A stretch of DNA of 64,000 nt from Myxococcales bacterium. GTDB taxonomy: Bacteria > Myxococcota > UBA727 > JABDBI01. The position numbers were made by a program, and so were the translations under genes. Below the pieces are notes generated by a model, which saw only the letters and a list, made by a program, of their open reading frames with translations, made no database searches and had not been told where the DNA came from. The stretch lies in the NCBI GenBank assembly GCA_023898405.1, contig CP060221.1, positions 4,958-68,957 on the forward strand, in the 5' to 3' direction. Below are positions 6,610 to 43,831 of this stretch, piece after piece; position 1 is the stretch's first letter; each line of letters starts with the position of its first letter.

Positions 6610-6800
6610 TCCTTCACCTTCTGAAACTTTTGTATAAAAGCAGCTCAGTACAAAAAACTTGCAAAAAGTTTTTTAAAAGCTGTGTAAAGTTTTTATTAAA
6701 AGGGAGAAAAATTTGGCCTTTAAATCGTAGAGAGCATATTTGAGTTAGTTCGTATAATTTTATGTATCAATAACGAAAACAATCTCTAAGAGACCGTTTT

Positions 6801-6834
6801 GAAAATATTTTCTCAGCTTAGAGAAAATATTTTT
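6801..6834. terminator. perfect 14-bp inverted repeat (GAAAATATTTTCTC / GAGAAAATATTTTT, 6-bp spacer) immediately 3' of the PP2C gene; probable terminator or operator
   Basis: Read directly from sequence; lies 9 bp beyond the PP2C stop codon. Confidence 0.35.
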
Positions 6835-6842
6835 GTCCTCTA

Positions 6843-8048
6843 TCACGTGTCATCACCGCCTGCGCTGGGATGACAAGGGAGAGCGGTCAAAATCACAACG
6901 CTAATGGTGATATCATCACGGATTCCCGAGAGAAGGTTTTCTTTTTCTTGATCTTCGCGATAAGGATTACTTTCATCTTTCTTTGCTGATGCAATCATCA
7001 ATTGATGAACAATGCTCTCAGCATCTTCTCTTTCATCTAAAAGCTTCTTTGTTTGGGTATAAGCATCGTCATTAGAGATATTGTCCCAAAATCCATCAGA
7101 AGCAATAATAAAAAATTTATTTTGACCTCTAACAAGCGGCACAAATTTAATCTCTGGTTCATAGGTCAGTCCACATTTATGTTTGCCATATCCCAACGCA
7201 CGCGTCATCTCTGACAGGGGACTCTCTTCTTCCCAGTCAACCTTAGTAATTATTTTCTGATCGCTGAGTAGATCTTGGTGAGGGTTGGTCGAAATAGGAA
7301 TAGATTCAGAACGATCAGGATTTTCATTTTCACATAAAAATAATTTTCTACGAACTGATTTATTACCTAGAGAGTCGCGCTTTTTTTGTACAACTTGTGG
7401 CGCTTTTCTATATTTTTCAGGTGGTTCTAAAATTGAATCTAGCTCCTTTTTTGGTTGGCACGAAAATTTTTTAATTCGCTCTTGCTCACTTTCACATTCC
7501 CAATTATGGTCGGCCGTTGCAAAAAAAATATTTTCATCGCCAAGTTCCCCCACCAAAATACGAGAGTCGCCCGTGTGAGCTAAAAAATAGCCTTCTTCAT
7601 TCCTTTCATTGCGAGCAATAATTAAAACTGCAGCAGTAGAGCCAGAAGGTTTACTTGTTCTCTGTGCTCTGTAGCCATTATTGGCGTATTCGAAACTTGT
7701 GACAATGCTTTGCTCTTGAAGTTTAAAATCGGGTTGCAACGCTGTATTTAGGCTGGGATAGATTACATCCTTGGCATATTGCGACATTCCGTAGCCTCTG
7801 TGTCCATCAAACACTCCGAAAAAAGCAAAGGACGCTTTATTAACATTTATAAAACGATCTTCATTAGGACCGCTTTTTCGATTGGTTTGTTGTGTAACTG
7901 TTGCAAAGTCTAGAGAATATTTTTCAAAAATTTTTTTGCAGTTGTCTTCTTCTGGCATCAGATTGCTAGCCAGCAGCAAAGAACTAAAGATAATATTAAA
8001 AAAAAATATCAATCGAAAAAAATTTAAAAAAAATTTTTGCTGTGCCAT
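6843..8048 (-). CDS. PP2C/PPM-family Ser/Thr protein phosphatase with N-terminal signal peptide or membrane anchor and a roughly 100-aa internal insertion
   Basis: PPM motifs FGVFDGHRG, SGSTAAVLII, LAHTGDSRILV, FFIIASDGFWDN, DDITISVV; N-terminus FFRLIFFFNIIFSSLLLASN hydrophobic; ATG start. Confidence 0.75.
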   Translation of the reverse strand: MAQQKFFLNFFRLIFFFNIIFSSLLLASNLMPEEDNCKKIFEKYSLDFATVTQQTNRKSGPNEDRFINVNKASFAFFGVFDGHRGYGMSQYAKDVIYPSLNTALQPDFKLQEQSIVTSFEYANNGYRAQRTSKPSGSTAAVLIIARNERNEEGYFLAHTGDSRILVGELGDENIFFATADHNWECESEQERIKKFSCQPKKELDSILEPPEKYRKAPQVVQKKRDSLGNKSVRRKLFLCENENPDRSESIPISTNPHQDLLSDQKIITKVDWEEESPLSEMTRALGYGKHKCGLTYEPEIKFVPLVRGQNKFFIIASDGFWDNISNDDAYTQTKKLLDEREDAESIVHQLMIASAKKDESNPYREDQEKENLLSGIRDDITISVVILTALPCHPSAGGDDT

Positions 8049-10379: not shown

Positions 10380-11786
10380 TTAACGAAGTATTCCTAACTG
10401 TGAGCTGTAAGTTTTGACCCAAGCAATGAGAGGGTCTGGGTAGATTCCTAGCGTTATAGTTAAGAGAGCGGCAATGATTGCAATACTTGAGAAAGGAATT
10501 TTTTCTAAGCTTTGATCTTCTGTAACGGGCTGAAACATAATGAGGCTAAGCCTTATAAAAGCAATAAAAGTCAGAACGCTTGCTGCAACCATGTGGGGTA
10601 GAAACATCCACAGATTAGCTTTTATAGAAGCGCTAAAAATAGAAAATTTCCCGATAAAACCTGCAGTAAGGGGGAAACCTGTTATGGAAAAAAAGCCTAT
10701 GAGTAAAGCTATAGAGTGAAGTGGACAGCGGAAGTAAAGACCTTTCAAATCCTCATTTTTGATGTGAGAAGACCTGCATGGTAATGAGTTAAGGGTGAGC
10801 AAAACAAGAAAAATTCCCAAAGAAAATGCGCACAGGTCTAATAGGACTGCCTCAATGCCTGCGATACTTTGACTCATCACTGCAATAAATAAAAATCCCA
10901 TATGACTGATGGATAAAAAGGCTAAGAAACGAAGGAAATTTTTCTCAATGATCATGAGACCACTTCCCAACCATAATGAAACTATTGCCATCGCTGATAA
11001 TGTTATGGAAACTGAATTGCTTTGATCAAAATAGATCAACGAAATGCGCAAAAATGTAAGCAAAACAGCGCTTTTACTGACCACAATCATTAAGGCTACA
11101 GTAAAGAATGGCGCTCCTTGGTACACTTGGGGAGCCCAGATATGAAAAGGAAAAATACTGAGCTTAAATGCAATGCCAATCAATACAAAGGCAATGCCAA
11201 AGAGCGAAAGTGGTGAAATCCCATCAAGTCTCCACCTGATTGCCTGAGCATAGAAATCAAAACTTTGGGTATCAGCATAAAACAACAGGATGCCAAACAA
11301 CATAAAACTCATTGCAATGGCTGAAAGCAAAAGGTAGCGCATCGACGATGAAATGGCATAAGGGTTTTTATGGTCTCGCGAGATAAGTGCATAGATTGGG
11401 ATCGACATACACTGGATAGCTACAAATAATATCATCCAGTTATGGCTAATGAGCACAGAAATAGCTCCAACTCCACTAAGAAGGATTAGAAGCAGTGAGC
11501 CAATATTTTTATCTGCATGAGAATTATTGAAAGACATAACCGTGATAGTAAAAAGCGATGGCAACACGAGTTGAAACCCAAAAGTTCCCAACGCGTCGAG
11601 GGAGATTCCCCAGATATTGATATTTGTTTGAGTGGCTACAAAACCAGAATACCAGGCCAGACCTAATAAAATAGCAAGCATGGCAAGTATGATACGCGGT
11701 GACCATCGAGCGATGTATGCACCGATAGTGAGAACTATAGCGGCACTAACAGATAAAAATGGGGCAAAAGCAATAATAGGGTTCAT
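10380..11786 (-). CDS. nuoN: NADH-quinone oxidoreductase subunit N
   Basis: Polytopic antiporter-like subunit; last gene of the nuo operon; operon context. Confidence 0.85.
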   Translation of the reverse strand: MNPIIAFAPFLSVSAAIVLTIGAYIARWSPRIILAMLAILLGLAWYSGFVATQTNINIWGISLDALGTFGFQLVLPSLFTITVMSFNNSHADKNIGSLLLILLSGVGAISVLISHNWMILFVAIQCMSIPIYALISRDHKNPYAISSSMRYLLLSAIAMSFMLFGILLFYADTQSFDFYAQAIRWRLDGISPLSLFGIAFVLIGIAFKLSIFPFHIWAPQVYQGAPFFTVALMIVVSKSAVLLTFLRISLIYFDQSNSVSITLSAMAIVSLWLGSGLMIIEKNFLRFLAFLSISHMGFLFIAVMSQSIAGIEAVLLDLCAFSLGIFLVLLTLNSLPCRSSHIKNEDLKGLYFRCPLHSIALLIGFFSITGFPLTAGFIGKFSIFSASIKANLWMFLPHMVAASVLTFIAFIRLSLIMFQPVTEDQSLEKIPFSSIAIIAALLTITLGIYPDPLIAWVKTYSSQLGILR

Positions 11787-13267
11787 GGCAATGCTACCTG
11801 TTTATCATGAAGTATTTTTAGTGAACTGGAGGCCTGAGTCTCTATATTTAGCGAAGAAGCGATGTCGAAGGAATTCAAAATTAAATTGGGAAAAAATCCG
11901 GCGACAAGTAAAGCCACGACGATAAGGCCGTACATCATGTTGTCTAATGAGGTATATGCAGAAATTTTTATATCTGAAGCACTACCCCAACAAAGTCTCT
12001 GAAATAACCAAAGAGAATAAATTGCCCCCAGTACCATTCCAAGAGCTACCAAAATCGAAATCACAGGTGCTGCGCTAAAAGTTCCCCACACCACCATCCA
12101 CTCACCGATAAAATTTCCAAACACTGGAAAACCAAGGCTTGCTAGAGAAAAAAATAAAATGATCACTGCAAGAATAGGATTTTTTTCCCATAGCCCATAG
12201 TTTTGACGCAAATCAACAGGAGAAAGTTGACGCACTATGAGAAGCAAAGACGCAGTACTAAAGGTTTGGCAGATCAATAAAAACATGACCCCTAAAAAAG
12301 AGGCTTGATTACTGGAAAACAGGCCCACCAGCAACATGCCTGCATGACTTAAAGTTCCATAAGCAAGCAATGAAGTAGGATTTCTTTGGCCAAAGGCTAC
12401 GATTGCACCATAAAAAATTGAAATCACTCCCACATACATAATGGGTTGTGCAAACAATGTGCATGCATCAGGAAACAGTGGCCAACTAAAGCGCATAAGA
12501 CCAAAAATAGCCGTTTTAATGAGCAGTCCCACCAAAATGATAGGAGCAGGTGCATTATTAAACACACCAGCAATCCATCCGTGAAATGGTACGCTGGGAA
12601 GCTTGATTAAAAATGCTAGTAGAAAACCCAAAAATAAATATGGTTGAACAGCGGTATCAATGGGCACTGATAATATTTTTGCATAGCTAAATGTAAAAAT
12701 ATTGGTCGACTGGAAATTGTAATAAGCCAGCCCAATAACCGAAAGCAATAAAATAAAGCCACTAAGCTGAGTGTAAAAAATATAGCGCATGCTTGAAGAA
12801 CGGCTTTCTTCCTTTCCATGGAAGAGCATCATCCAATACACGGGTAACAAGGATAGTTCCCAAAAAATAAAAAACAAAAATATGTCAACCGAAGCAAGCA
12901 AGCCTACTACAGCAAATACAGCCCAGCTGATGGAAGCAAAGTAAGACTTTAAATTTTTATCGGGATGAGCAAAAAAACATGCGATAATACCCATGACAAT
13001 CGTTAAAGCGATGAGCCACCAGGCGATGACATCAAGGCCAAAGTGCACATTGATATCCCATGTGCTAATCCAGGGCATTTGCCACTCATATAACCAGGGC
13101 GCAGCTTGAGTCGAGGAGGATAAAAATTCGACACCTATAGTCACGCATATAACGAGAGCTATAGCTATTCCTACTAGGGCAATAGTCTTTTGGAAAAAGA
13201 GACTATTCGGACCATAAAGAGAAAAAAAACCGCTGCTCAAAAGTATGATTAACAGTAAGGGAAGCAT
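11783..13267 (-). CDS. nuoM: NADH-quinone oxidoreductase subunit M
   Basis: Antiporter-like membrane subunit; 4-bp overlap with nuoN. Confidence 0.85.
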   Translation of the reverse strand: MLPLLLIILLSSGFFSLYGPNSLFFQKTIALVGIAIALVICVTIGVEFLSSSTQAAPWLYEWQMPWISTWDINVHFGLDVIAWWLIALTIVMGIIACFFAHPDKNLKSYFASISWAVFAVVGLLASVDIFLFFIFWELSLLPVYWMMLFHGKEESRSSSMRYIFYTQLSGFILLLSVIGLAYYNFQSTNIFTFSYAKILSVPIDTAVQPYLFLGFLLAFLIKLPSVPFHGWIAGVFNNAPAPIILVGLLIKTAIFGLMRFSWPLFPDACTLFAQPIMYVGVISIFYGAIVAFGQRNPTSLLAYGTLSHAGMLLVGLFSSNQASFLGVMFLLICQTFSTASLLLIVRQLSPVDLRQNYGLWEKNPILAVIILFFSLASLGFPVFGNFIGEWMVVWGTFSAAPVISILVALGMVLGAIYSLWLFQRLCWGSASDIKISAYTSLDNMMYGLIVVALLVAGFFPNLILNSFDIASSLNIETQASSSLKILHDKQVALP

Positions 13268-21471: not shown

Positions 21472-23211
21472 CTAGCGATCCAGGTCAGCAAGAACAAAGT
21501 CCACGCTTCCCAAAATGGCCATTAAGTCTGGAATAGTCGTTCCTTTGGCAAGCAAAGGAAGCATCTGTAAGTGAGCGAAAGATGGAGTCCGAATACGAGT
21601 GCGGTAGGATCGATTGCTGCCGTCACTGATCAAATAGTAGCTATTGATACCTTTGGTCGCTTCAATGCCAAAAAAAGATTCACCGGCAGGCATCACAGGT
21701 CCCCATGAAACATTCAAAAAATGCTGAATCATTGTTTCAATATTTGCCAGAGTTTCTGCTTTGTTTGGCGGGGTTGTCAGGGGATGATTCGATTTAGTTG
21801 GACCATTAGGCATTTTTTTTACGCATTGCTCGATAATACGCAAACTCTGGCGCATCTCTTCAATGCGCACCAAACCTCTATCGTAGCAATCGCCATTTTT
21901 AGCGGTAGGAATATCGAAATTAAATTGTTCGTATCCCGAGTAAGGGCGTTTTTTTCGTAAATCCCATTCAAGGCCAGTTGCTCTTAGTCCAGCCCCGCTT
22001 ATTCCCCATTCTATCGCTTCTGATAAAGAGTAAGCTCCAATTCCAATAGTGCGTGCCTTAAAAATGCTATTTTCCATGACCAATCGATCATATTCTTTAA
22101 GCTTGCTTGGGAAATTTTTTGTAAAATCTAAGACTGCATTTTCCCATCCTTGCGGCAAGTCGTGCGCAACACCGCCAATACGAAACCAGCTTGGATGCAT
22201 ACGGCCACCAGTTATCCCCTCGACAATGCGAAATATTTTTTCACGTTCATTAAACATGTAAAAAATTGGAGAGAGAGAGCCTATATCCTGAGCAAAAGTG
22301 CCGTACCAAACTAAGTGACTGGCAATGCGAAAAAGTTCGCACATCATGACTCTGATAGTTTGAGCTTTTGGAGGAACATCTATGCCAGCCAGTTGTTCAA
22401 CAGCCAACAGATAAGCAAGATTATTCATAACCCCACCGAGATAGTCGATTCTATCAGTGTAAGGGATATAGCTATGCCAATTTTGTCGTTCGCCCATTTT
22501 TTCAGCGCCACGATGATGAAAGCCTATATCCAGCACTGAATCAACAATTTCTTCGCCATCAAGCTGCAAAATAATGCGTAAGACTCCATGAGTGCCAGGA
22601 TGCTGAGGACCTAAGTTTAAAAAGATATATTCATGATCATCATCTTTTCTTTTAAGTCCCCATTCTTCAGGTTTAAATTCTAATAGATCTTGCTCTGCTT
22701 GTTCTTGATCTTCATCGAGGTGGTAAAGACCCATTTCTGTTGCGCGAGCAGGGTGCACTTTGCGTAAAGGGTGACCTTTCCAAGAACGAGGCATGAGAAG
22801 GCGCATAAGGTGAGGGTGACCTATAAAGCTGACACCGAACATGTCAAAAATTTCTCGTTCGTACCAGTTAGCATTTTTGAAGAGCTCAGTCACGCTTTCT
22901 ACGCTGAGTTGGCTATCCTTAAGCGCAACCTTAAGACGAATATCTTCGTTTCGTGCCAACGACAAAAGATGATAGACCAAAGTAACATCCGAATTGGGTT
23001 GAGCATCACAGTGTTCTCGTTCAGTTTCATCGATAGCGGTCAGATCATATAACATAGAAAAAGGTTGAGGCACATTTTTTAGGTAGCTAAGAATAGTTTT
23101 AATTTTTGAGCCTTCGATCCAAACTGTAGGGATGAGATCATTGCTCCTTTGCTGTCCCTTGATTGCCTCGGGAAACTTATTTTTCAGGCTCGAAACAATA
23201 GCTTCGTTCAT
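21472..23211 (-). CDS. nuoCD: fused NADH-quinone oxidoreductase subunits C and D (579 aa)
   Basis: N-terminal 30-kDa NuoC-like region ([14 protein letters not shown]) continuous with a 49-kDa NuoD-like region ending ...VLADLDR. Confidence 0.9.
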
Positions 23212-23221
23212 GATTCACTCG

Positions 23222-23845
23222 CTACATGTGGTTGGGTTCATCGTAGGTTTGGACTGCTTTTCTTGTCTCGCCTTTAATTTTACGCATAGAAAGAGGAGTG
23301 GGTTTACTTACGTCTTGTGAACCTCCCAACCAGGAAATAGGGCGCCTTTCCTTACCAATGGATTCACGCAAGAGCAAAATACCCTCCATAAATGCTTCGG
23401 GCCGAGGAGGACAACCTGAAATGTAGAGATCAACAGGTAAAATTTTATCGACTCCTTGAACAACGCTATAGATATCGTACATTCCGCCCGAGTTTGCGCA
23501 TGATCCCATGGATATCACCCATTTTGGTTCCATCATTTGTTCATAAAGCCGTTTTACTATGGGAGCCATTTTTCTAAACACGGTTCCGGCTACCACCATG
23601 ACGTCAGCTTCTCGAGGAGTTCCTCTTATAACTTCCGAACCAAATCGCGCAACATCATATGTGCTGGTAAGACTGGTTGCCATTTCGACGTAGCAACAAC
23701 TTAAGCCAAAATTAAAGGGCCAAACAGAATTTTTTCTTCCCCATGAGATCAGATCTTGAAGACGAGAAAATAAAAAAGTCTGAGCCTCATTCGGGCCAAG
23801 CTGCCCTTTAAGCCATTGTTCGGGGGTTTTAGTAATTAGAGTCAT
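23222..23845 (-). CDS. nuoB: NADH-quinone oxidoreductase subunit B (20-kDa, 4Fe-4S N2)
   Basis: [21 protein letters not shown] and [10 protein letters not shown]...CPP motifs. Start placed at internal Met MTLITK, because the longer ORF has an unlikely Cys/Arg-rich leader and would overlap nuoA. Confidence 0.85.
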
Positions 23846-24213
23846 GATCGAGCACCACCTGCCACGCGAGGACGAGGACCAAATCTCAATACGCCTTTGG
23901 CTATGACATAATAAAGAGAAAGCAGCAACATGCTGATGAATACAGAAATTTCTATAAATCCTAACCAACCGACGTCGACAACAGAAGTGGCCCACAAATA
24001 AATGAAAGCTGATTCAAGATCGAAAACAACAAATAAAATTGCTACCAAAAAGTATTGTGCAAAGAAGTGTACACGCGCAGTGCCCGCAGATTTAATACCG
24101 CCTTCATAGGGAGTTCGTTTTCGTGGATTGGTGCTACGTTCTCCTAAAAAATAAGATGAGAGCATTACCAAGACAACAGTTATGACGCCAAAACAATAAA
24201 TCGCCAAAGACAT
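23842..24213 (-). CDS. nuoA: NADH-quinone oxidoreductase subunit A
   Basis: 123-aa three-TM protein; first gene of the operon; ATGA overlap with nuoB. Confidence 0.85.
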
Positions 24214-24395
24214 GAGTGAACTCCGGGGTATCTAAAGCCGATCACTTTACCAATAGTACAGCACAGTAGAGCAGCAACAGCGGTTGTGTTTAATTTATTC
24301 AGATTTTTATTTGGAAAATGAGCTTATAAGCCTATGAAAACTTGATTTATTATGGAGAAAATAATTCAGCAGGTGAGAGAATATTTTTTGAACTA

Positions 24396-25652
24396 TTACA
24401 TGCTTTTTATTGCGGGCCTTCTGAGTGAGGCTATGTATATTACTCCGGCTGCAAAAATACTAAAAAAACTTCCCATCAAGAAGGTGGCCGATAAACCAAA
24501 GCGATGAGATAGATTTCCTGCTATAGTATTAGCCAAAAATAATGCTACGCCGCTGATTACAAAAAATAATGAATAGGCAGTTCCTCTAAGTTTTGCTGGG
24601 GTTGCCTGGGCGATCATGGCTTTAAGCAATCCTTGTGTAGCTCCCATATGTAGTCCCACCAAAATGACACCTATGATTGTGCCAGCTATGGAACTTACAT
24701 AAGATAGGAATGCCTGTGCCGTAAACATGAGCACAAGACCCGCCGATAACATCATGCTGCGAGAAATTTTATCAGCATATTTTCCACAAGGAATGGCTAC
24801 ACCAGCATGTACAAGATCCATCACGATGATCATCATGGGCAAATAAGCTACCGACCAGCCAACTTCTTTTGCCTTTAATGTTAGAAAAGCTTCGCTAAAG
24901 CGTCCAAGCATAAGAAAGAAAAAGGCCAGCATGAGCCACCAAAAAATAGGAGAAAATTCTTTGATGTCGGTGAGCTCAACTTTTTTCCGATGGTACCTAG
25001 TATCAGCTCTTGGGTGAGAGTTAGGATTAGGTTTGATCCACAAAAATAAAATTAACAAAGCCAAACTTGCAGGAATGGCAGACAAAGCAAAGACCAAACG
25101 ATAATTGTTGTTGGAGCTCAACATGAGCAACATTGCCGCTAAAGCTCCGACTACCTGACCAAGAGTATAGAGCGCCTCGCGAAAGCCAAAATTAGTGGCA
25201 TAAAATCCACGTTCACTGAGATCTGCGATCAAAGCATCTGTGGGAGCTGAGCGAATACCTTTGCTGAGTCGATCGATAAACCTCAATCCAAAAACCATTC
25301 CTGTAGTAGTTGATAAGGCAAAAATTGGCTTTACCATGGCGGTAAGTGCAGCTCCTAACAAGATCAGTGGCTTTCTCTTACGCATGACATCGCTTAAGAA
25401 ACCAGAAAAAAATTTAGCCAAAAAAGAAGAAGAAATAGCAATTCCTTCGATCAACCCAATATCATGATGCCCGGTCTTAAGTTCATCAACCAAGAAAGCC
25501 GGTAATAAACTAAAAACCATGAGTGTTGACATTGACCAAAAGAAACTCATCCAAGCAATGCCCTGAATGTTTTTGTGATCGCTTTTGCTATGGTTTTTAG
25601 CGGTGGGCATGTTCATATTTTTGGCATTCACCCTTGTCCCCAATCTATTCAT
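24396..25652 (-). CDS. major facilitator superfamily (MFS) transporter
   Basis: 12-TM-like hydrophobic pattern; MFS motif-like GLRFIDRLSKGIRSAPTDALIADL. Start uncertain (internal Met chosen); the 99-aa N-terminal extension of the longest ORF is implausible. Confidence 0.65.
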   Translation of the reverse strand: MNRLGTRVNAKNMNMPTAKNHSKSDHKNIQGIAWMSFFWSMSTLMVFSLLPAFLVDELKTGHHDIGLIEGIAISSSFLAKFFSGFLSDVMRKRKPLILLGAALTAMVKPIFALSTTTGMVFGLRFIDRLSKGIRSAPTDALIADLSERGFYATNFGFREALYTLGQVVGALAAMLLMLSSNNNYRLVFALSAIPASLALLILFLWIKPNPNSHPRADTRYHRKKVELTDIKEFSPIFWWLMLAFFFLMLGRFSEAFLTLKAKEVGWSVAYLPMMIIVMDLVHAGVAIPCGKYADKISRSMMLSAGLVLMFTAQAFLSYVSSIAGTIIGVILVGLHMGATQGLLKAMIAQATPAKLRGTAYSLFFVISGVALFLANTIAGNLSHRFGLSATFLMGSFFSIFAAGVIYIASLRRPAIKSM

Positions 25653-25785
25653 AAAAACTTCTTGCCGTAGTTTTCGGCAATTGCCAAAGGAGGGGTGCCA
25701 AAAATGCATTATTGTATTAAAAAAGCTACAAAATCGGAGTGTTGGCTTTGTTCGTTGTGTGGTGAATTTATTTTTATTATAATTT

Positions 25786-26847
25786 TTGAGCCATGGAGAA
25801 TTTATGGAAATAGCAAGCAGGCGGCGCGAACAAGAAGTGTGGCAAGCGTGTGATGACTTGTGGGCATTACATGGAAGTATGGATGGTATTACCGGCGAAG
25901 CTATTCGCGAGCGCTTGTTGGGGATGGGAAAGAGTCGTGGCAGTCCCAATGAAATCTATAAATATCGTAAAACATGGACAGTGAGCCGAAAAATTGGGCG
26001 AGAAAATACTGGTGACTGTAGTGCTAATTCTGATCCAATTTCGCGCGCAGTTCGTATGGTGCATGAAAAAATTCAGAGCGAAACTCAAGAAGAAATTGAA
26101 AAGATAAAACTAGAATTTAATGAAGAATTACTCACAAAAGACAAAGAAATAGAACAGGGCAAGAAAAATATAGAGGCTCTTGTTCATGAAATGACATCGC
26201 TACAAAGCGAGTTTTCCCAGCTGAGTCAACAACATCAAGCACTAAATGAACAATATCAACGAGAAATAAAGACAAGAAAAGATCTTGAACATGATTTTTT
26301 AATTTTCAAATCTCAGCATGCACAAGAAATAAGCTCCCACGAGCGAATAATGGCCGAATTTTACAAAAATCAAAAGTACACTTTGGAGCAGACCAAAAAT
26401 GCATTTGATAATGCTCAAAATACTCTACAAGCACAACTGATACGCGCCAATGAAGAAAAAAAACAGCTGGGACAAGAATATTCTGAAAGTCTCAATGCTG
26501 TAAAAATTGAGAAATATAATCAAGATGTAAAACTAGGCGAACTAGAACATCAGCTTACATATCTGAAAGATACGCTTGAAATTTCCCAACAAAAAATAAT
26601 TGAACAAGATACAAAATTTAAGACGGTATTGGAAGAGAGCCTCAAACTTCATAAAGAAAGAGATGCATTGCGTGAAAAATTAGCTTTTGTACAAAACGAG
26701 CTTTTTATTGTTCATAATCAACTAAGTGAACTGAAAATAGAAATTGTCAAACGTGATGTTACGATAGCTCGTTTGCGAGCACTGCAGGCACATAGTAGAG
26801 GAAAGACCAATGGAGCATCTAGAGAAAGGCCAGCTGCAAAAACTTAG
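25786..26847 (+). CDS. KfrA-like protein: N-terminal KfrA_N-type DNA-binding domain followed by a long coiled coil
   Basis: N-terminus EVWQACDDLWALHG...TGEAIRERLLGMGKSRGSPNEIYKYRKTW resembles plasmid KfrA N-domain; residues from about 100 to 340 are heptad-rich with E/K/Q/L. Confidence 0.55.
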   Translation: MSHGEFMEIASRRREQEVWQACDDLWALHGSMDGITGEAIRERLLGMGKSRGSPNEIYKYRKTWTVSRKIGRENTGDCSANSDPISRAVRMVHEKIQSETQEEIEKIKLEFNEELLTKDKEIEQGKKNIEALVHEMTSLQSEFSQLSQQHQALNEQYQREIKTRKDLEHDFLIFKSQHAQEISSHERIMAEFYKNQKYTLEQTKNAFDNAQNTLQAQLIRANEEKKQLGQEYSESLNAVKIEKYNQDVKLGELEHQLTYLKDTLEISQQKIIEQDTKFKTVLEESLKLHKERDALREKLAFVQNELFIVHNQLSELKIEIVKRDVTIARLRALQAHSRGKTNGASRERPAAKT

Positions 26848-27937
26848 GTCGAATCTTATCCAAAATGAAAAGTCTGATTGCCGCATTAGAGCTCGCAACG
26901 ATGTTGAAGCATTTGAACGATGGCTCGACGAGTATTTTGAAAAACCCACCACCTACCGTAGTTATAAGAAAGAAGGAGAAAGGTTTTTGGTGTGGTGTGC
27001 GCTTGAAAGAAACTGCACGCTCGAGACGCTCAGCAGAGACGATGTTGAAGCCTACATTTCATTTTTAAAAAACCCTCAACCCTTTGAAAAATGGTGTGGT
27101 CCTAAGGGAGGGCGTTCTCATAAGGGTATTTGGAAACCATTTAGTGGTCCACTAGGTGAGAGTGCTATTCGCTGTGCGCTTGCTATTCTCAACTCTATGA
27201 TGGGTTATTTGGTGGATGCAGGTTATGTTTCTTTTAATGCTTTTGCCCTCATACGAAGAAAAAGTAGGCTTAAAGAAAAATTGGTCAGTAATCGCTTTTC
27301 TATTGAGGAGCGAATCTTAAGCCAAGAAGAATGGCGGGTGTTTCTTCAAACGATGCGCGATTATCCGGAAAATAATTCTCATGAAGTGAAAAAAAAACAA
27401 AGGCTAATTTTTTTAGTTACAATTCTTTATTTTTTGGGTTTACGGATCGATGAATTAGCCCAATCAACATGGGCAAATTTTCGTCAGCTCAATGGTAAAT
27501 GGTGGTTTTTTGTACGAGGGAAAGGCGATAAGCTGGGCAAAATTCCTATCAATCGAAATCTTTGGCAGGCAGTTATAAAATTCAGGCTGAGCCTTGCTAT
27601 GTCACCCATACCCCACGAAGAAGATTATCTGCCTATAATTCCCTCATTAAGCTCGCCACAAAAAACACTCACGACCAGGCAAATGAGCAATTTGCTTAAA
27701 GAACTAGCACTCAAAGCGGCTTTGCAATTGAAGGGAAACCCACATAGCGCCAAAAAAATGGAAAAATTTTCCCCGCACTGGTTAAGACATTTATCGGCAT
27801 CGAGGCAGGATTTGGCTGGTGTTTCATTTACCCACATTAAAGAAAACCTTCGGCACTCAAACGAACAAACGACCAGACACTATGTCCACGCTTTTGATGA
27901 TAAGCGCCATGAAGAAATGGAAAAATTTAATTTTTAA
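26810..27937 (+). CDS. tyrosine site-specific recombinase (phage-integrase family)
   Basis: N-terminal SAM-like domain; catalytic box LGLRIDEL (R), KGDKLGKIPIN (K), HWLRHLSAS (HxxR), LRHSNEQTTRHYVH (Tyr nucleophile). Confidence 0.8.
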   Translation: MEHLEKGQLQKLRSNLIQNEKSDCRIRARNDVEAFERWLDEYFEKPTTYRSYKKEGERFLVWCALERNCTLETLSRDDVEAYISFLKNPQPFEKWCGPKGGRSHKGIWKPFSGPLGESAIRCALAILNSMMGYLVDAGYVSFNAFALIRRKSRLKEKLVSNRFSIEERILSQEEWRVFLQTMRDYPENNSHEVKKKQRLIFLVTILYFLGLRIDELAQSTWANFRQLNGKWWFFVRGKGDKLGKIPINRNLWQAVIKFRLSLAMSPIPHEEDYLPIIPSLSSPQKTLTTRQMSNLLKELALKAALQLKGNPHSAKKMEKFSPHWLRHLSASRQDLAGVSFTHIKENLRHSNEQTTRHYVHAFDDKRHEEMEKFNF

Positions 27938-27996
27938 AAAAATTTAATCGTTTTGGACTTTTTCGTCACCAATACACACAGACGAACGAGGACCAG

Positions 27997-28929
27997 ATGA
28001 AAAGAATTTTATCCTATTTAACTTTATGTGTAGCGCTGTCACCGGTTCTGCATGCTCAAGAAGAGGCAGTCTCAAAATTAGAAAAACCTTATTTGGGTGC
28101 AGAAATCTCTGTGAATCAAGCGGTGGCTCCCGGTGCAATTTCAAGTCGCTTTGGTGAAAGTCGATCATTAACTAGCGATTTACTTTTGAAACCTACACTG
28201 AAGAGCAAAGAATTTTGGGGCGACCGTTACCTTAAAGCCGATTTAGAATTTTATTCTATTTTTGAATGGATGCCCAAAAATACCGCTAAAGCAGGAGAAA
28301 AACTGAGTTTTAACGACGTGAAATTTAGAACACAGCTGAAAAATGCCGTAAATCACCAAGCATCAGGAATTTCCTATGCTCCTGGGGTTGAAGTGGAAAT
28401 ACCCGCATCAAAAACTTCTTCAGTCAGCAATCGTATCATTGGGCTTGGACTGAATTCTGCTTTGTCATGGAGCAAATGGGGACTAACTCTAAGTTATAAA
28501 CCAACAGCAGTGGCATATATTCACTCGCTTCCCTATAAAAGTTCCGCCTGCTCACCTGATAGTTCCGCCGAAGATAAATTAAGTGGAAATCAATGTCGTG
28601 TCGATGGACGGCAGACAATGCTGATGTTGAAGAATCAATTATCTGCTGAATATACTTTAGGGGCAAACGTTTTTACGCTGGCCTTCAAAACCTATCACAA
28701 TTTTCTCAGACCGAATGAAGAAGCACAAAAGTACACAGAATCAACTTTAGCCTATCTTGAATATGGCTATAAATTACCCACAAGTTTTGAGACGATACTA
28801 AAGTTGGGAATTACCAGCTACAATCCCGCTTATGATCCTGCCAATGGTTTTAAAGTGCCCTTCGTATCTACTAATGTCGGTGCATCAAACTTCACCAATA
28901 TCTATGCGGGGGTGGATATAACTTTGTAA
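27997..28929 (+). CDS. hypothetical outer-membrane (beta-barrel-like) protein with signal peptide
   Basis: Signal MKRILSYLTLCVALSPVLHAQ; alternating amphipathic segments; aromatic-rich C-terminal strands. Confidence 0.4.
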   Translation: MKRILSYLTLCVALSPVLHAQEEAVSKLEKPYLGAEISVNQAVAPGAISSRFGESRSLTSDLLLKPTLKSKEFWGDRYLKADLEFYSIFEWMPKNTAKAGEKLSFNDVKFRTQLKNAVNHQASGISYAPGVEVEIPASKTSSVSNRIIGLGLNSALSWSKWGLTLSYKPTAVAYIHSLPYKSSACSPDSSAEDKLSGNQCRVDGRQTMLMLKNQLSAEYTLGANVFTLAFKTYHNFLRPNEEAQKYTESTLAYLEYGYKLPTSFETILKLGITSYNPAYDPANGFKVPFVSTNVGASNFTNIYAGVDITL

Positions 28930-29129
28930 AAAAGATTCTACGTCGTTACTGAGCCAGAGCCTATAAGAATTTTTAACAATGGTATTTAAAATTCCATATA
29001 GGCTCCTGGGCACCGGTGTGCTCTTCATTATATTTTCATGCATAGTCATTGACCTGTATTGAAATAATAGTTATGCCAATCCGATAAATCACTAGTATTG
29101 TATGTTTTAGCTAATGTTGGAGTGTATTT

Positions 29130-30428
29130 ATGATTGTAAGGATAATTGTTTTCTTTTTATGTCGCAGTTTGTTTTCGTTGAACATGTTTGAGCAAGGTGA
29201 AGAGATTCAGAGAAATGAGCTCATAAGCGAAATTATTATTCCGGATACTGAAAACGATGAGAATAGAGCTCAAGAAATTAATCTAGAACAAAATCTAGCC
29301 GATGCAGGTATCGAGGCTGAAAACGAAAATTTAAGAAATATCATCACTTCAAGGAGGATTGTTCAAGAAAATAGATCTGAAGTTGGAACTGTTGAACAAA
29401 TACTTCCAGAAGTAAGTGCAATGGGTGACTTTAATAATGATAATGCCAAAAATAACGAAAAGACGTCAGAAAATACCAACGAAAAGATAGTAAGGATTTT
29501 TCGCGTTAACCAAGGCTCTAATCATGGTGAAGTGTTTGGTTCACGAATTTTTATGGGAAAAGGTAAGATGTTGGGTCTTCCCAATGAAATTTGGGCGGAA
29601 ATTGCTTCCTATCTAGATCTAAAAGACCTAGCAAATTTCAGACTGGTTTGCCATGACACCAATGATGTGGTTTCGTTCGCAGGCAAGCTGCAGGATTCCT
29701 GGCTGCATTCGAATAGGTTTTATGAACATTTGGCTTACCTAAGAAAGTTGACCGGTTTTATAAAAATAAGTGAAAATTTAGCGGTGTCACATGTGGATAA
29801 AAAGTTTGTGAAAATTTGGTATAGATCAGATGATAGTTCTTCTTATTCGCTGTTAGAAACAATAGATCTCAGTGAAGCCGTCAAGGTGGGCTCGTCTGAC
29901 AGAATTAAACCTTTGGAGGGTAGCAATTTCTATTTATGTTCTTATGAGCACAACGACGATACCTTCGGTGTGTCCACCGATGATGAAGTAGGTGCGTATG
30001 TTTTTAAGCTTGAGGAAAAAGGATTTACATGTGCCTATGTGGCAGATGAAAAATTGGAGAACCTTAAGATTAACTGCTCTAGTGCGGATATACTTTCCTT
30101 TGCTTTGATGATTAATCTAGGGCCAGAGAAGGTGTGTTGCAAGGAAGATATGCTGCTCATTTTTGAATCCTTAGTGGAAAAGTATCAGCCAACAAGTAAA
30201 AAAGCCCAAGAAGTATTGTTGTCACTAATTATAGCGGCAGAATTAAACAAAGAAGTTGCTGACCGAAAGCTATTACTATCCGCGTGTCAGGCCCTACATG
30301 AAGTAGGCGAAAAACGCTGTAGTGAAAATAAATCAATTAAAGGGTTGCTGTCTGATGTCACTAAAGAAGACTTTCTCGACTGCAATTCAAAAATAAAAAA
30401 ACAACACAACACATGCGCATTGTTGTAA
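29130..30428 (+). CDS. F-box domain protein (eukaryote-like; candidate host-targeting effector)
   Basis: aa 148-178, LGLPNEIWAEIASYLDLKDLANFRLVCHDTN, matches the F-box consensus LPxEIxxxIxxxLxxxDLxxxxxVC; GGAG RBS 9 nt upstream of ATG; acidic low-complexity N-terminal region. Confidence 0.7.
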   Translation: MIVRIIVFFLCRSLFSLNMFEQGEEIQRNELISEIIIPDTENDENRAQEINLEQNLADAGIEAENENLRNIITSRRIVQENRSEVGTVEQILPEVSAMGDFNNDNAKNNEKTSENTNEKIVRIFRVNQGSNHGEVFGSRIFMGKGKMLGLPNEIWAEIASYLDLKDLANFRLVCHDTNDVVSFAGKLQDSWLHSNRFYEHLAYLRKLTGFIKISENLAVSHVDKKFVKIWYRSDDSSSYSLLETIDLSEAVKVGSSDRIKPLEGSNFYLCSYEHNDDTFGVSTDDEVGAYVFKLEEKGFTCAYVADEKLENLKINCSSADILSFALMINLGPEKVCCKEDMLLIFESLVEKYQPTSKKAQEVLLSLIIAAELNKEVADRKLLLSACQALHEVGEKRCSENKSIKGLLSDVTKEDFLDCNSKIKKQHNTCALL

Positions 30429-30751
30429 GCAGCACTTATCAAGCTAGTGCCCTTATATCAAGCTAGGTCAAGCATCAATTGCTCTGTCATGTCGATATTG
30501 AATGTCCCATGTGGATAACGTGGGCATAAATTAGAGGAGACAGAGCCCGTTTTTCACTCGGTAGTGCAAAATTTAGCTGTATCACTCAGCTATTCCCAAA
30601 AACAATTCACACAGTGTTATACCAAAAAGTTTTGAAATCAAAATCATCGCTTTTATCATTGCACACTCTATAAATCTGCTCCTTTTTTATTTTTTCAAAC
30701 AACCATTAGAAGTATTAAACGATAACTCCACCAAAGTATCGGAGTAGTTTT

Positions 30752-31129
30752 ATGCAGTATTTATTTTTTATTTTGTTTTTATTTGCCCAATCTCTTTTTG
30801 CTATTGAAAGTATAAAAATTGACTTTGAAGATTATGCTACCGAAATTTTTTTTACTCACGATGCACAAGACTCATTTAGAGGCAGCATAGTAAATAAAAC
30901 GGATATCTTTGGAGTATGTGAGGGTAATTTTTTCTATGATCTTAAAAATGGAAAGCTTGAGCTTACATATAATGATGATGAGTGTCTGTCGCAAAACCTC
31001 ACTCTTTTTTTCGACTTTATCTTGTTAAAGAAAATTACCAACGGCATTAGAACGCGCGTATTTTATAAGCGTGGGGATGACAGACACACCCTAAAACAGG
31101 CCTACATGCAAATTTCTATGTTGTTGTGA
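30752..31129 (+). CDS. small hypothetical exported protein (125 aa)
   Basis: Signal peptide MQYLFFILFLFAQSLFA; 3' end overlaps acs stop by 14 bp (convergent). Confidence 0.35.
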   Translation: MQYLFFILFLFAQSLFAIESIKIDFEDYATEIFFTHDAQDSFRGSIVNKTDIFGVCEGNFFYDLKNGKLELTYNDDECLSQNLTLFFDFILLKKITNGIRTRVFYKRGDDRHTLKQAYMQISMLL

Positions 31130-32990
31130 GCGCACTGCTATCTTCCAACGTCGTTATATCAGCTTTAACCTCTTCACCTCGTGCAATTGATCTAAGCAGT
31201 CTGCGCATGATTTTGCCTGAGCGAGTTTTAGGCAACAAAGCTCTAAAGTGAATAGCAGCAGGTTTGGCAAAAGAACCAATGCAATTTTTTACTTGCTCTT
31301 TAAGCTGTTCTTCAAGACCATCACTTGGCTCTACATTTGGCATGAGGCTTACAAAGGCAACTAAGCGTTGACCTGTGACATCGTCATGAATTCCTACTAC
31401 CGCTGCTTCTGCTATTGCTGCATGTGCAACAAGCGCACTTTCTACCTCCGCTGTACCTAAGCGGTGACCGGAGATATTTACCACGTCATCAATGCGTCCG
31501 TTAATGTGTATATCTTTGTCTAAATCGAAATATGCGCCATCTCCGGTAAAATAAGCTCCAGGAAATTTATCAAAGTAGCTTTGTAAAAATCGTTCCTGGT
31601 CACCCCAAATACCTCGAGCAAGTGATGGCCAAGGCTTTTTGATCAAAAGATAACCTGTTTCATTATTTTTACAAAGCTCTCCCTGTTCAGAAATAATTTC
31701 TGCATCGATAGCAAAAAATGCCTTTGATGCTGAACCAGCCTTTGGAGTGTCGATATCGGGAACCGCGCTCATCATGATGGCACCAGTTTCAGTTTGCCAC
31801 CAAGTGTCAACGATATCACAACGATCTTCACCCAAGACGCGTTTGTACCACGACCATGCCTCAGGGTTGATGGGTTCACCAACGCTTCCCAAAAGCCGCA
31901 GAGAAGAGATATCGTGTTGTCCTTTGTATTCTTCACCTGCAGCCATGAGCATGCGAACTGCGGTAGGAGCCGTGTAGAGGACAGAAATTTTATGTTGCTC
32001 GATCAGTTGGTATAACCTTGCAGCTGAAGGAAAATTAAAGGCGCCTTCAAAAATAAAAATACTATTGCCCAGCAAAAGTGGACCGTAGCAAATGTAGCTA
32101 TGACCGGTGATCCAGCCAATATCTGCGCTACACCAAAATAAGTCTTTATCTTTGAGGTCAAATATCCACTGTGTCGTTGAGGCAACTTGAACTAAGTAAC
32201 CACCTGTGGCGTGAAAAATGCCTTTTGGTTTACCTGTTGTTCCCGAGGTATACAAAATAAAAAGTGGATGCTGAGCATCAAAAGAGTGTGGTTCTCTTAC
32301 TTTTTCTGCCCAGTTATCGGTTGGAACAAAACGAATATAACGAGAATCGCTTGCTAAAGTCTCACAATCAAAACAAAGCACAGTTTCTACGGAATTACAT
32401 TTTGTATCATCCAAAGCCTTATCAACAACGTCTTTTAACTTAATAGTATGCCCTTTTCGTTTGGTAGAATCCGCTGTTATGACCGCTTTCGCTTTAGCAT
32501 CGTGAATGCGGTCTATCAAAGCTTCTTTAGCAAATCCACCGAAAATTACTGTATGGATAGCACCCAGTCGCGCGCAAGCAAGCATGGAAGCAATGCCTTG
32601 AGGGTTCATGGGCATATAAATTGCGACGCGATCGCCTGAAGTGATACCCCGTTCATGAAGCAAATGAGCAATTTGACAAGTTAATCTGTGAAGCTCTTGA
32701 TAAGAATATTTTTTTACAAAGCCATCCTCATTTTCAAAAATGATCGCTGTCTTTTGCCCCAGGCCATTTTCAATATGTCGATCCAGGCAGTTAAACGAAG
32801 CGTTGAGGCCTCCTCCTAAAAACCATTCGCCACCAGCGAATGTGCCGTCGTGTACCTGATGAAAACTCTCTTTCCACGATAATCGCATGGCTTCGTGGTG
32901 CCAAAATCTGTCATAACTAAGTGAAGAGGCTTTCTTGTAAGATTGCTGTTTCTCTTTACTGGACTGCCAAGAAAAAGGATGGATTGCCAC
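31116..32990 (-). CDS. acs: acetyl-CoA synthetase (AMP-forming)
   Basis: 624 aa; AMP-binding motif YTSGTTGKPKG; N-terminal Acs-like region; GTG start with AGGAG RBS. Confidence 0.85.
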   Translation of the reverse strand: MAIHPFSWQSSKEKQQSYKKASSLSYDRFWHHEAMRLSWKESFHQVHDGTFAGGEWFLGGGLNASFNCLDRHIENGLGQKTAIIFENEDGFVKKYSYQELHRLTCQIAHLLHERGITSGDRVAIYMPMNPQGIASMLACARLGAIHTVIFGGFAKEALIDRIHDAKAKAVITADSTKRKGHTIKLKDVVDKALDDTKCNSVETVLCFDCETLASDSRYIRFVPTDNWAEKVREPHSFDAQHPLFILYTSGTTGKPKGIFHATGGYLVQVASTTQWIFDLKDKDLFWCSADIGWITGHSYICYGPLLLGNSIFIFEGAFNFPSAARLYQLIEQHKISVLYTAPTAVRMLMAAGEEYKGQHDISSLRLLGSVGEPINPEAWSWYKRVLGEDRCDIVDTWWQTETGAIMMSAVPDIDTPKAGSASKAFFAIDAEIISEQGELCKNNETGYLLIKKPWPSLARGIWGDQERFLQSYFDKFPGAYFTGDGAYFDLDKDIHINGRIDDVVNISGHRLGTAEVESALVAHAAIAEAAVVGIHDDVTGQRLVAFVSLMPNVEPSDGLEEQLKEQVKNCIGSFAKPAAIHFRALLPKTRSGKIMRRLLRSIARGEEVKADITTLEDSSALTTT

Positions 32991-42021: not shown

Positions 42022-42954
42022 ATGTCCAAAGAAATTTTACTGAAAGAATATGCCACTTCACTCGGCTTTGATGATATGGGAATCGCTTCTGTGGATGGTC
42101 CGCTGCCCTTTATTCAAGAAGTTAAGCAAGCTTCGGTTGACGAAAGGTTTGGCCCACTCGATTATCTCTACCGAACACTTCCTCAAAGACTAGATGTGCG
42201 CTCATTTTTCCCAATAGCTCAGAGTGTTATAGTTGTTATAAAAAATTATTACACTGGTGATCACCCAACTTCTTTACAGGCTCAAGCAAAAATTGCTCGT
42301 TATGCCTGGGGGCACGATTATCACCAGTGGTTTAAAAAAAGACTTAAAAACATCTCAAATTATTTACAAAAAGAATATGGAGCACAAAGCTGGATATTTA
42401 ACGATACAGGTCCATTTTTAGAACGCTCGTGGGCTTTGAAAGCAGGATTAGGTTTTATTGGCAAAAGTGCCATGTTTATTCATCGGGAATTTGGAACGTG
42501 GACGTTTATAGGTGGTGTGGCCACTGACTTAAACTTACAAGCTGATGAGGCGTATACAGGGCCAAATTGTGGAACGTGCACTCGCTGCATTGATGCCTGC
42601 CCAACAAAAGCTATAATAGCCCCTCATACTATCGAAGCAAAAAAATGCATATCTACCTGGACCATTGAACGAACGCTTCATAGTGAGTCTATAGCGCTTG
42701 CGCCAAGAAATCATGAATGGGCTTTTGGTTGTGATGTATGCCAGGAAGTTTGTCCTTGGAATAAATTCGAGAAGTTTAGCCCCGAGCCTCGATTTCAGCC
42801 AGTACCTGGAAGGGTTTTCCTCAATCAAGAAACTTTTAATCAGGATCTTAAGGGGTCACCGCTTTACAGGACAAAAAAAGTTGGACTGAGAGTCAATTTA
42901 ATTCGTATTCAAAAAACTCTGGCATCGATGAATCACCGCGATCATCAGTATTAG
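42022..42954 (+). CDS. queG: epoxyqueuosine reductase (tRNA Q34 biosynthesis), 4Fe-4S
   Basis: Ferredoxin-like cysteines CGTCTRCIDACP and CDVCQEVCPWN. Confidence 0.75.
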   Translation: MSKEILLKEYATSLGFDDMGIASVDGPLPFIQEVKQASVDERFGPLDYLYRTLPQRLDVRSFFPIAQSVIVVIKNYYTGDHPTSLQAQAKIARYAWGHDYHQWFKKRLKNISNYLQKEYGAQSWIFNDTGPFLERSWALKAGLGFIGKSAMFIHREFGTWTFIGGVATDLNLQADEAYTGPNCGTCTRCIDACPTKAIIAPHTIEAKKCISTWTIERTLHSESIALAPRNHEWAFGCDVCQEVCPWNKFEKFSPEPRFQPVPGRVFLNQETFNQDLKGSPLYRTKKVGLRVNLIRIQKTLASMNHRDHQY

Positions 42955-43831
42955 AGCGCAATGGAATATAGTCGATGGTGGTTTGAATCAAAGTCATTCT
43001 TTCTGAGTGAGATATAATTTTTGTCTCTTCGTTGTCTTTCATTAGAAGGGGCGGATCACGAACTTGTTGCCATTGCATTACATCTAAAATCTTTTGAGCA
43101 GATTTAGGACGGAGCCGCGGGGTAGGGGCAAGTAAAGCTTTAATGAGGTAGAATAAATCCTTCTGATCGCCTGTTACATTTTCCTCTAGTAATCTAAATG
43201 ATCTATACATTTTTGCGGGATTAAAAGATTGCATGGTAATGCACTCAAATAAAATTGTGCCCAAACTGTAAAGATCCGACAAATGACTGGTCTGAGCACC
43301 AAACAAGATTTCGGGAGCGAGATAGCAAGTTTGTCCGAAAGGAAATGAACTAGAAAGCGGACCAAAACTCGCAGCACCAAAGTCGATTATGAGAGAACCC
43401 TTATGTTGCTGCCAGAGCAGATTATCGGGTGATAGATCGTTATGATAAATGCCCGTAGAATGAATATAGGCCAATATTTCTAAAAGCTGCCTTGTAATGC
43501 TTCTTATATGCTCAAGTGAAAGCTTGCTCTTAATCACCTGTCTGAAGCTCTTGGCTGGAAAATAATCCAAAATAATTCCTAGTGATTCCTTAACCTGGCA
43601 ATATCCTTGATATGCTGGGATACACGGATGCTTTAAAGCACAGAGTGCTTTGGCTTCCCGCTTTGCCTGAGAACGATCATTATAAATCTTTAGGATGATA
43701 TCTTGATAGTGAGGTAGTATACGCCCCTTGTAAAGTGTAGCCTGTCCCCCTTGATTTAGAAATTCAGTAACTAAAAGCAGATGTCTTTGTTCAAAAATAT
43801 TCTTGGCGATACCATCGTTGTGCAAGCTCAT
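42893..43831 (-). CDS. Hanks-type (eukaryote-like) Ser/Thr protein kinase, stand-alone catalytic domain with atypical catalytic loop
   Basis: Subdomain motifs: Gly-rich loop region, IILKIY (beta3 Lys), HNDLSPDN (catalytic loop, Ser replaces Lys), IDFGAAS (DFG), YLAPE (APE); no TM or other domains. Confidence 0.7.
   Translation of the reverse strand: MSLHNDGIAKNIFEQRHLLLVTEFLNQGGQATLYKGRILPHYQDIILKIYNDRSQAKREAKALCALKHPCIPAYQGYCQVKESLGIILDYFPAKSFRQVIKSKLSLEHIRSITRQLLEILAYIHSTGIYHNDLSPDNLLWQQHKGSLIIDFGAASFGPLSSSFPFGQTCYLAPEILFGAQTSHLSDLYSLGTILFECITMQSFNPAKMYRSFRLLEENVTGDQKDLFYLIKALLAPTPRLRPKSAQKILDVMQWQQVRDPPLLMKDNEETKIISHSERMTLIQTTIDYIPLRSNTDDRGDSSMPEFFEYELN

Follow-up and report, generated by a model that had tools for sequence, protein, structure and literature searches.

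A KfrA_N-helper/tyrosine-recombinase operon resident beside acs in the chromosome of a 'Myxococcales' bacterium, possibly a domesticated two-protein resolvase

At 24.4-31.1 kb of the stretch of DNA analysed here (64 kb of contig CP060221.1, from an assembly that carries the NCBI label Myxococcales; 'the window' in what follows), six genes lie between the nuo operon and acs. They encode a major facilitator superfamily (MFS) transporter, a protein with a KfrA_N domain followed by a long coiled coil, a tyrosine recombinase, a predicted outer-membrane protein (OMP), an F-box protein and a small protein with a signal-peptide-like N-terminus. The pair formed by the KfrA-like gene, called the helper below, and the recombinase gene is the main subject of this analysis; their open reading frames (ORFs) are on the same strand and overlap by 38 nt. 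The initial annotation of this DNA had placed all six genes correctly (Table 1), and its expectation that the two proteins would match the hidden Markov models (HMMs) of KfrA_N and Phage_integrase was borne out. It had also proposed that the region is the remnant of an integrated plasmid or integrative and conjugative element (ICE) that delivered the other genes as cargo. We find instead that the region is not a discrete recent island: it is long-resident chromosome, with a variable spot between the recombinase gene and acs, and the pair within it may be a domesticated two-protein resolvase.

Table 1. Genes and other features between nuoA and acs, in window coordinates.
Feature	Position	Strand	Evidence and remarks
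nuoA	23842..24213	-	PF00507, E 8e-28; closing gene of the nuo operon, left neighbour
MFS transporter	24396..25619	-	PF07690, E 9e-46; divergent from the KfrA-like gene
Conserved intergenic block AGTTTTCGGCAATTGCCAAAGGAGG (also given as AGTTTTCGGCAnTTGCCAAAGGAGG), with dyad GGCAATTGCC	25669..25693		Between MFS and helper genes, 25 bp
Protein with KfrA_N domain and coiled coil of ~250 aa, 347 aa	25804..26847	+	PF11740, E 1.1e-6; proposed TnpT-like helper
Tyrosine recombinase, 375 aa	26810..27937	+	PF00589, E 5e-14; proposed catalytic subunit
Predicted outer-membrane beta-barrel protein, 310 aa	27997..28929	+	Structure model and Foldseek
Hairpin (inverted repeat I12), 20-nt arms, 85% complementary, 9-nt loop	28957..29005	+	3' of the OMP gene; probably a terminator
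F-box protein, 432 aa	29130..30428	+	PF00646, E 4e-8
125-aa protein with signal-peptide-like N-terminus	30752..31129	+	ORF and translation; 3' end overlaps that of acs by 14 nt
acs, acetyl-CoA synthetase	31116..32990	-	NF001208, E 5e-254; right neighbour

The start of the MFS gene is probably at 25619 instead of 25949, as judged from a start, ATGAACATG, that is kept in relatives. The order of the genes was compared on contigs with a homologue of either the recombinase or the OMP-like protein; these contigs are referred to here by locus number (L001 and so on). In the window the order runs from the MFS gene to Der over 24.4 to 41.3 kb, with acs opening the run acs-M48-MetRS-TilS-FtsH-Der. The order kept in relatives is MFS(-), KfrA-like, recombinase, OMP-like, (small protein), acs(-), M48 peptidase(-), MetRS(-), TilS, FtsH and Der, and at least five other lineages share this block to a varying extent. 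The full order is seen to the limit of the locus in L003/L004/L005/L012 and in L163/L164, whose recombinases are 73% and 63% identical to that of the window, and it is seen in L165 (60%) as well. L013 (66%) has the MFS, helper and recombinase genes, L014 (55%) has the same three followed by a 150-aa ORF and acs, and L006/L007 (57%) have the three and then acs, with some insertions. MFS orthologues that are 56-77% identical occupy the same position in L003, L013, L014, L006, L163 and L165. Five of the six genes, which had been described as non-core genes between two housekeeping blocks, keep their order beside the same housekeeping genes in these diverged relatives.

The recombinase has diverged about as far as its housekeeping neighbours in every lineage. 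Identities to the window for recombinase, Acs, MetRS and MFS are 73, 72, 75 and 77% in L003 and 63, 63, 70 and 63% in L163; they are 60, 63 and 69% for recombinase, Acs and MetRS in L165, and 57, 57 and 56% for recombinase, Acs and MFS in L006. This parallel divergence indicates that the recombinase has been inherited vertically together with these neighbours. Conserved gene order in distant relatives had been named at the outset as the evidence that would speak against an island, and the order is shared with relatives at 55-73% recombinase identity, which largely refutes the proposal that 24.4-31.1 kb is a plasmid or ICE remnant.

The question of whether nuoA lies directly beside acs elsewhere has a similar answer. 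Outside the window, nuo genes flank the conserved block on its left in the L003 lineage alone, and L006, L163 and L165 have different left flanks; the picture of an insertion between nuoA and acs is therefore wrong. The locus also varies at the left end of the conserved block, in the gap between nuoA and the MFS gene, which is 182 bp in the window (24214-24395): in L003, the closest relative, a 782-aa gene (4522-6870, -, no Pfam match) and a 77-aa ORF lie between nuoA and MFS.

Other marks of a mobile element were looked for in and around the region. GC content, GC at third codon positions (GC3) and codon usage of all six genes fall within the spread of the window's nuo, ribosomal and tRNA-synthetase genes, so that the compositional deviation suggested as a check is absent against the core genes of the window. 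Direct and inverted repeats over 23.8-31.4 kb amount to short, AT-rich pairs of low identity, none of them at plausible boundaries. The earlier remark that no tRNA and no obvious att repeats flank the region holds: there is no tRNA within 30 kb of it, and the sole tRNA of the window is a tRNA-Met at 61766-61842 (+). No conjugation, replication or partition genes were found in the 64-kb window, and megablast of the whole region against plasmids gave no match at the DNA level. An Rfam scan of 23.5-31.5 kb at E <= 1 gave no match, promoter and terminator scans performed no better than shuffles, PADLOC returned zero defence-system matches, and PHROGs matched a generic integrase family alone. A metagenome scan with Acs for relatives with an empty site returned distant Acs proteins alone (<=53% identity) with no common neighbours, and was uninformative.

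The window's only transposase gene lies elsewhere. It is IS4/Tn5-like (Tnp_DNA_bind and DDE_Tnp_1 domains) and is found at 61952-63355 (-), 110 bp from the tRNA-Met gene and at the end of the ribosomal-protein/rpoA cluster. If the window holds any recent mobile insertion, this gene is a better candidate for it than 24.4-31.1 kb.

The recombinase is the only tyrosine recombinase within the window. Residues R212, K238, H323, R326, H349 and Y358 are invariant across 12 family members (alignment A1), in agreement with the initial reading of an intact R-K-HxxR-Y set. A core-binding, SAM-like region begins at about residue 45 and there is no extra N-terminal (arm-binding) domain. The protein appears to group with simple resolvases of the Xer and Tn4401-TnpR type, apart from the integrases of phages and ICEs. 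Among proteins of solved structure, those closest to it in sequence are XerA, XerH and a XerC-like protein. Its nearest named relative is the 'TnpR' of Tn4401, with which it shares 30% identity (E 2e-48) over the C-terminal 360 aa of that protein; the Tn4401 protein (L081, pKPC_FCF/3SP, 4371-6086) is no serine resolvase but a tyrosine recombinase of 571 aa that carries DUF3701 at its N-terminus, and it accounts for most of the ~580 Klebsiella plasmid matches to the window recombinase, which by Pfam has no DUF3701. Tn4401 TnpR has been classed in the 'simple' tyrosine recombinase subgroup that lacks an arm-binding domain (bioRxiv 10.1101/542381). A plasmid recombinase from pA81 is 34% identical, and its KfrA_N neighbour is divergently transcribed.

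The comparison with XerL was made with the Coxiella sequence (CBUA0010), not with lpg1867 of L. pneumophila. The two proteins are 28% identical (E 3e-42), similar in length and alignable end to end. In a neighbour-joining tree, built without bootstrap and with TnpS as outgroup, the KfrA-linked recombinases are monophyletic, their sister group is formed by Tn4401 TnpR, pA81 and pHG1, and the XerL clade is next out. XerL orthologues that are 56-59% identical to Coxiella XerL share contigs with the KfrA-linked pair in two loci from metagenome-assembled genomes (MAGs) labelled 'Coxiellaceae': in L030 the XerL gene (11331-12572, -) is ~250 bp from the pair, and in L020 (15853-17109, -) it is ~4.8 kb away. 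This coexistence makes XerL and the KfrA-linked recombinases paralogues. The identification of the window recombinase as a XerL orthologue was considered and rejected in view of these true XerL genes beside the pair and of the separate clades of the tree.

The helper's KfrA_N match is weak, at 29.7 bits against a gathering cut-off of 26.1, and is far stronger in relatives (E 1e-24 in L030 and 2.5e-23 in Aquicella). Its tail, residues ~90-330, matches coiled-coil proteins alone in profile searches (SMC/Rad50, myosin rod, lamin, ZapB). The gene is not in a plasmid replication or partition region; it is chromosomal, between the MFS and recombinase genes, in a window without rep or par genes.

A closer counterpart to the helper was found in a two-component transposon resolvase. 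The plasmid pWW0 (L080) has two divergent genes ~180 bp apart, for a 'DNA-binding protein' of 332 aa and an integrase of 323 aa, which we take to be TnpT and TnpS of Tn4651, going by their sizes and by their arrangement (PMC4337579). This TnpT (29463-30461, -) has a Pfam KfrA_N match at E 2.6e-26 followed by a coiled-coil tail. When the helper family profile was aligned to it with HHalign, the N-terminal 90 residues matched with a probability of 98.2% (E 4.4e-14), and by this profile comparison the helper is homologous to TnpT; the link is made by profile methods only, and pairwise BLASTP between the window helper and pWW0 TnpT found no similarity. TnpT has been stated to resemble no known protein (PMC7157771, PMC4337579). 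Its KfrA_N domain means that resolvase helpers of the TnpT type and plasmid proteins of the KfrA type share a DNA-binding domain.

The pair is widespread outside the window clade. The protein database holds 321 relatives of the recombinase, mostly from a single contig each, and a scan of one genome per species yielded 49 loci at 38-73% recombinase identity, from MAGs labelled Myxococcales/Myxococcota, Coxiellaceae, Francisellaceae, Legionellales and Gammaproteobacteria. With an iterated HMM, a KfrA-like ORF was found immediately 5' of the recombinase, on the same strand and usually overlapping it, in ~45 of 50 loci (recombinase 38-73% identical). The best plasmid match, at 44%, is plasmid 4 of Aquicella lusitana, which has the identical overlapping layout. 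Recurrent neighbours outside the window clade are ParA, ParB_N, TniA/TniB, AbiEi/AbiEii and a YhcG nuclease, and in L017 the pair stands in a plain housekeeping context. The view that a KfrA-like gene joined to a recombinase gene is a plasmid- or transposon-type pairing is upheld by the Aquicella plasmid, by the ParA/ParB, TniA/TniB and AbiE neighbours and by the nearest outgroups, namely the resolvase of Tn4401 and recombinases from plasmids. In some MAGs the pair is present two or three times. KfrA_N-helper/tyrosine-recombinase operons form a coherent and apparently undescribed clade across uncultured Legionellales, Francisellaceae and 'Myxococcales'-labelled MAGs.

Within this distribution, a subclade labelled 'Francisellaceae' (L041-L058; for example L043, 9908-11425) has recombinases of ~500 aa, with a C-terminal extension of ~120 aa that has no Pfam match. 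The pair is present up to three times in Francisellaceae-labelled MAGs, including twice (L043, L058) on the contig JBEKHL010000009.1.

Candidate DNA sites were sought near the pair. In the window clade, the intergenic block of Table 1 is kept in the window, L003 (~8700), L014 (~1780) and L163 (~7765) and partly in L013 and L165; the intergenic DNA around it is not conserved, and the proteins of these lineages are just 55-75% identical. The block occurs once in the window, a search of the other loci for exact copies gave none, and it could be an operator, a promoter or a recombination site. In other clades, a strongly conserved palindrome CYGATAAT-N4-RTTATCRG lies ~120-150 bp 5' of the helper ORF in at least 11 loci (L017 8743-8766, L019 ~5423, L020 8721-8740, L021 8725-8744, L022 8716-8737, L023 8843-8862, L026 ~99, L028 ~73, L030 ~8725, L043 ~8922 and L052 ~3524). 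About 25 bp downstream of it is a second, sequence-variable inverted repeat with arms of 9-11 bp. Judged by its sequence layout, this arrangement of two palindromes may be of the res type, in which one element is accessory and the other is the core.

The genes downstream of the recombinase have narrower distributions. The 310-aa protein has 7 homologues among 5.8 billion proteins and is restricted to the clade, and it has no sequence-family match in Pfam or the profile libraries. An AlphaFold2 (AF2) model built from 7 sequences shows a signal helix and ~14 strands, with a predicted local distance difference test (pLDDT) score of 63 and a predicted template modelling (pTM) score of 0.59. Among the Foldseek matches listed for this model in the PDB (64 with E <= 0.001), almost all are outer-membrane barrels of 12-14 strands, including FapF, COG4313, NanC and Tsx, with a best E of 1.6e-6 and a template modelling (TM) score of ~0.5. 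The model predicts, with moderate confidence, that the protein is an outer-membrane beta-barrel. Its orthologues directly follow the recombinase in L003, L163 and L165. Two metagenome contigs, L001 and L002 (1973 and 1682 bp), are identical to the window and both stop exactly at 28082, a position within the OMP gene. Just past it begins a partial OMP protein of the same MAG, which makes this a reproducible assembly break, from strain heterogeneity or a drop in coverage.

The 125-aa protein likewise has no family match in Pfam or the profile libraries, and 32% identical orthologues are present in L003 and L165. Its gene and the OMP-like gene are residents specific to this clade; in both L003 and L165 they are adjacent, with no F-box gene between them.

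The F-box match scores 33.2 bits against a cut-off of 20.5 and covers residues 148-181. Among 5.8 billion proteins the only homologue found for the F-box protein was itself. Exhaustive HMMER against 1.84 billion representatives gave 5 marginal matches, one of which (E 6e-4) reaches beyond the F-box region. The gene is absent from all relatives with the helper-recombinase pair, which contradicts its description as delivered cargo: being missing wherever else the pair occurs, it arrived independently of the pair. It is a recent orphan insertion in this lineage only, between the OMP and small-protein genes and after the hairpin of Table 1.

Further eukaryote-like signalling domains are encoded elsewhere in the window, at 2682-3416 (-), 6843-8048 (-) and 42893-43831 (-); the domains listed for these three genes are an SH2-like domain (weak, E 5e-4, under the cut-off), a PP2C phosphatase and a Ser/Thr protein kinase. 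Ank and RCC1-like proteins are found beside the conserved block in L003 and L163. The proteins with eukaryote-like domains, together with the F-box protein, suggest a host-associated lifestyle. The NCBI label Myxococcales is at odds with the 40% GC, the 2.5-Mb contig and the effector-like genes. In the nuo operon to the left of the region, NuoC and NuoD are fused into one 579-aa protein (21472-23211, -).

By using these observations, we are led to favour, with moderate confidence, the reading that this is a long-resident locus whose two-gene operon encodes a domesticated two-protein resolvase similar to TnpT/TnpS, descended from a plasmid or transposon and inherited vertically with the MFS, acs, M48 and MetRS genes. 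TnpS and TnpT form a heteromeric resolvase in which TnpT binds IRa/IRb and strand exchange occurs at IR1/IR2 (PMC7157771, PMC4337579). As in the systems of Tn4651 and TnXax1 (Tn3 family), the window has a tyrosine recombinase and a helper of ~330-350 aa whose N-terminus is KfrA_N and whose remainder is coiled coil, and other clades of the pair family have two different palindromes near the genes, comparable to IRa/IRb and IR1/IR2 of rst. That the two proteins act jointly, that the reaction is resolution, and what its substrate would be, we infer from this analogy. The helper would bind accessory DNA repeats via its KfrA_N domain and its coiled coil would organise the synapse, while the recombinase, related to XerL and Tn4401 TnpR, would carry out the strand exchange at a core site. 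The outcome would be the resolution of multimers or cointegrates where the pair is on plasmids or Tni-type transposons. In the chromosome of the window lineage, where the module has long been resident under constraint, the most plausible retained role would be chromosome dimer resolution. In a stricter form of the proposal, which we consider rather doubtful, the pair would be a domesticated, helper-dependent and Xer-equivalent chromosome dimer resolution system, distinct from XerCD, XerS, XerH, XerA and XerL, in which the helper might replace FtsK-type control.

Several observations weigh against the resolvase reading. The window genes are co-directional and overlapping, whereas TnpT and TnpS are divergent with the site between them; the window recombinase belongs to a lineage like that of XerL and Tn4401 TnpR, whereas TnpS is Cre-like, and BLASTP detects no similarity between the two (E 0.17). 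No helper is needed by XerL, which of the characterised relatives on chromosomes is the nearest (PMC9765430), and at L015 the recombinase occurs without a KfrA-like gene. No recombination site was found in the window: the GATAAT palindrome is missing from the window clade, and a search of the window for CTGATAAT-N4-ATTATCAG gave one match with 3 mismatches, inside coding sequence and at chance level. The conserved block at 25669-25693 does not have the architecture of a core site with a spacer and may be no more than a promoter or operator. GC skew on either side of the pair in 15 loci shows no consistent origin or terminus switch, and thus the position of the pair does not speak for a role at the terminus; the cumulative-skew minimum near 24-25 kb of the window coincides with a change of gene strand and was not read as an origin. 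The window also differs from the Tn3-family systems in having no Tn3-family transposase, and in a pair that is chromosomal and vertically inherited.

The other known systems resemble the pair in part. XerL (lpg1867, Coxiella CBUA0010), the single-recombinase dif/Xer enzyme of Legionellales, acts at a palindromic dif site near the terminus, and its loss causes filamentation. It is likewise a simple tyrosine recombinase of similar length, encoded by a conserved chromosomal gene in the same kinds of host-associated bacteria; it differs in being a paralogue from a separate clade, and no dif-like palindrome was identified at the window pair. Tn4401 TnpR is close by identity and sister by tree, but it carries its fused DUF3701 where the window pair has a separate KfrA_N helper, and it adjoins a Tn3-family transposase. 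KfrA of IncP-1 plasmids (RK2) also has an N-terminal KfrA_N followed by a long coiled coil; the window protein differs in its weak match, in its place outside any plasmid replication or partition region and in being always coupled to a recombinase gene, as classical kfrA is not known to be.

Four rival explanations were weighed against the resolvase reading. That an integrase inserted a plasmid or ICE between nuoA and acs, with the OMP, F-box and small-protein genes as cargo, would agree with the KfrA_N and Phage_integrase matches, with family members that lie on plasmids and beside partition and transposition genes, and with a recombinase-acs segment that varies among relatives. We nevertheless judge it improbable, as the block is syntenic and has co-diverged with its housekeeping neighbours in at least five lineages, att repeats, tRNA and compositional signal are all missing, genes for conjugation, replication or partition are lacking in the window and an arm-binding domain in the recombinase, no F-box gene accompanies the pair elsewhere, and the nuo adjacency is not ancestral. 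A similarly small chance is given to the locus being a functionless, drifting fossil of an old mobile element. The missing target site and the loss of the upstream palindrome of other clades would fit such decay, but both ORFs are intact in at least seven lineages with all catalytic residues invariant, the recombinase is conserved as strongly as Acs and MetRS, and the overlap of the two genes, with the coupling that it likely brings, has been retained.

The remaining two rivals give the recombinase a different task. An inversion or excision switch for phase variation of the adjacent OMP, F-box and 125-aa genes seems very improbable: the recombinase gene does lie immediately 5' of genes for envelope and exported proteins that are specific to the clade, what varies in the locus is the stretch downstream of it, and two metagenome contigs break inside the OMP gene at 28082, but the search for inverted repeats found none of meaningful length or identity on both sides of a promoter or gene, the pair is kept in L014 (where acs follows soon after the recombinase, with no OMP) and in L006 (where unrelated genes follow), and its contexts in other clades are unrelated. 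The least probable of the four, in our estimate, is that the recombinase is this organism's own XerL, a lone dimer resolution enzyme acting at a palindromic dif site. Its full-length similarity to the experimentally characterised Coxiella XerL, its single-copy, conserved and chromosomal gene in the window clade and the fact that homology searches are known to have missed XerL (PMC9765430) would support this; against it, L020 and L030 each have a true orthologue and the KfrA-linked paralogue on one contig, the tree puts XerL outside the KfrA-linked clade and beyond the Tn4401 TnpR group, and XerL is a helper-free enzyme, whereas the window gene is almost always translationally linked to a helper.

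What is new here, as far as sequence comparison can define it, is a co-directional KfrA_N-helper/tyrosine-recombinase operon, related to TnpT/TnpS, XerL and Tn4401 TnpR, that is fixed in a chromosome. The combination of an integrase and a KfrA-like protein can mislead when it is used as a marker of islands, as simple recombinases of the Xer/resolvase type with a KfrA_N helper can be old chromosomal residents. The recognition of TnpT as a KfrA_N protein ties KfrA-type plasmid proteins to the helpers of site-specific recombination. If it is true that the chromosomal copies of the pair resolve dimers, they would represent a new helper-dependent, Xer-like system.

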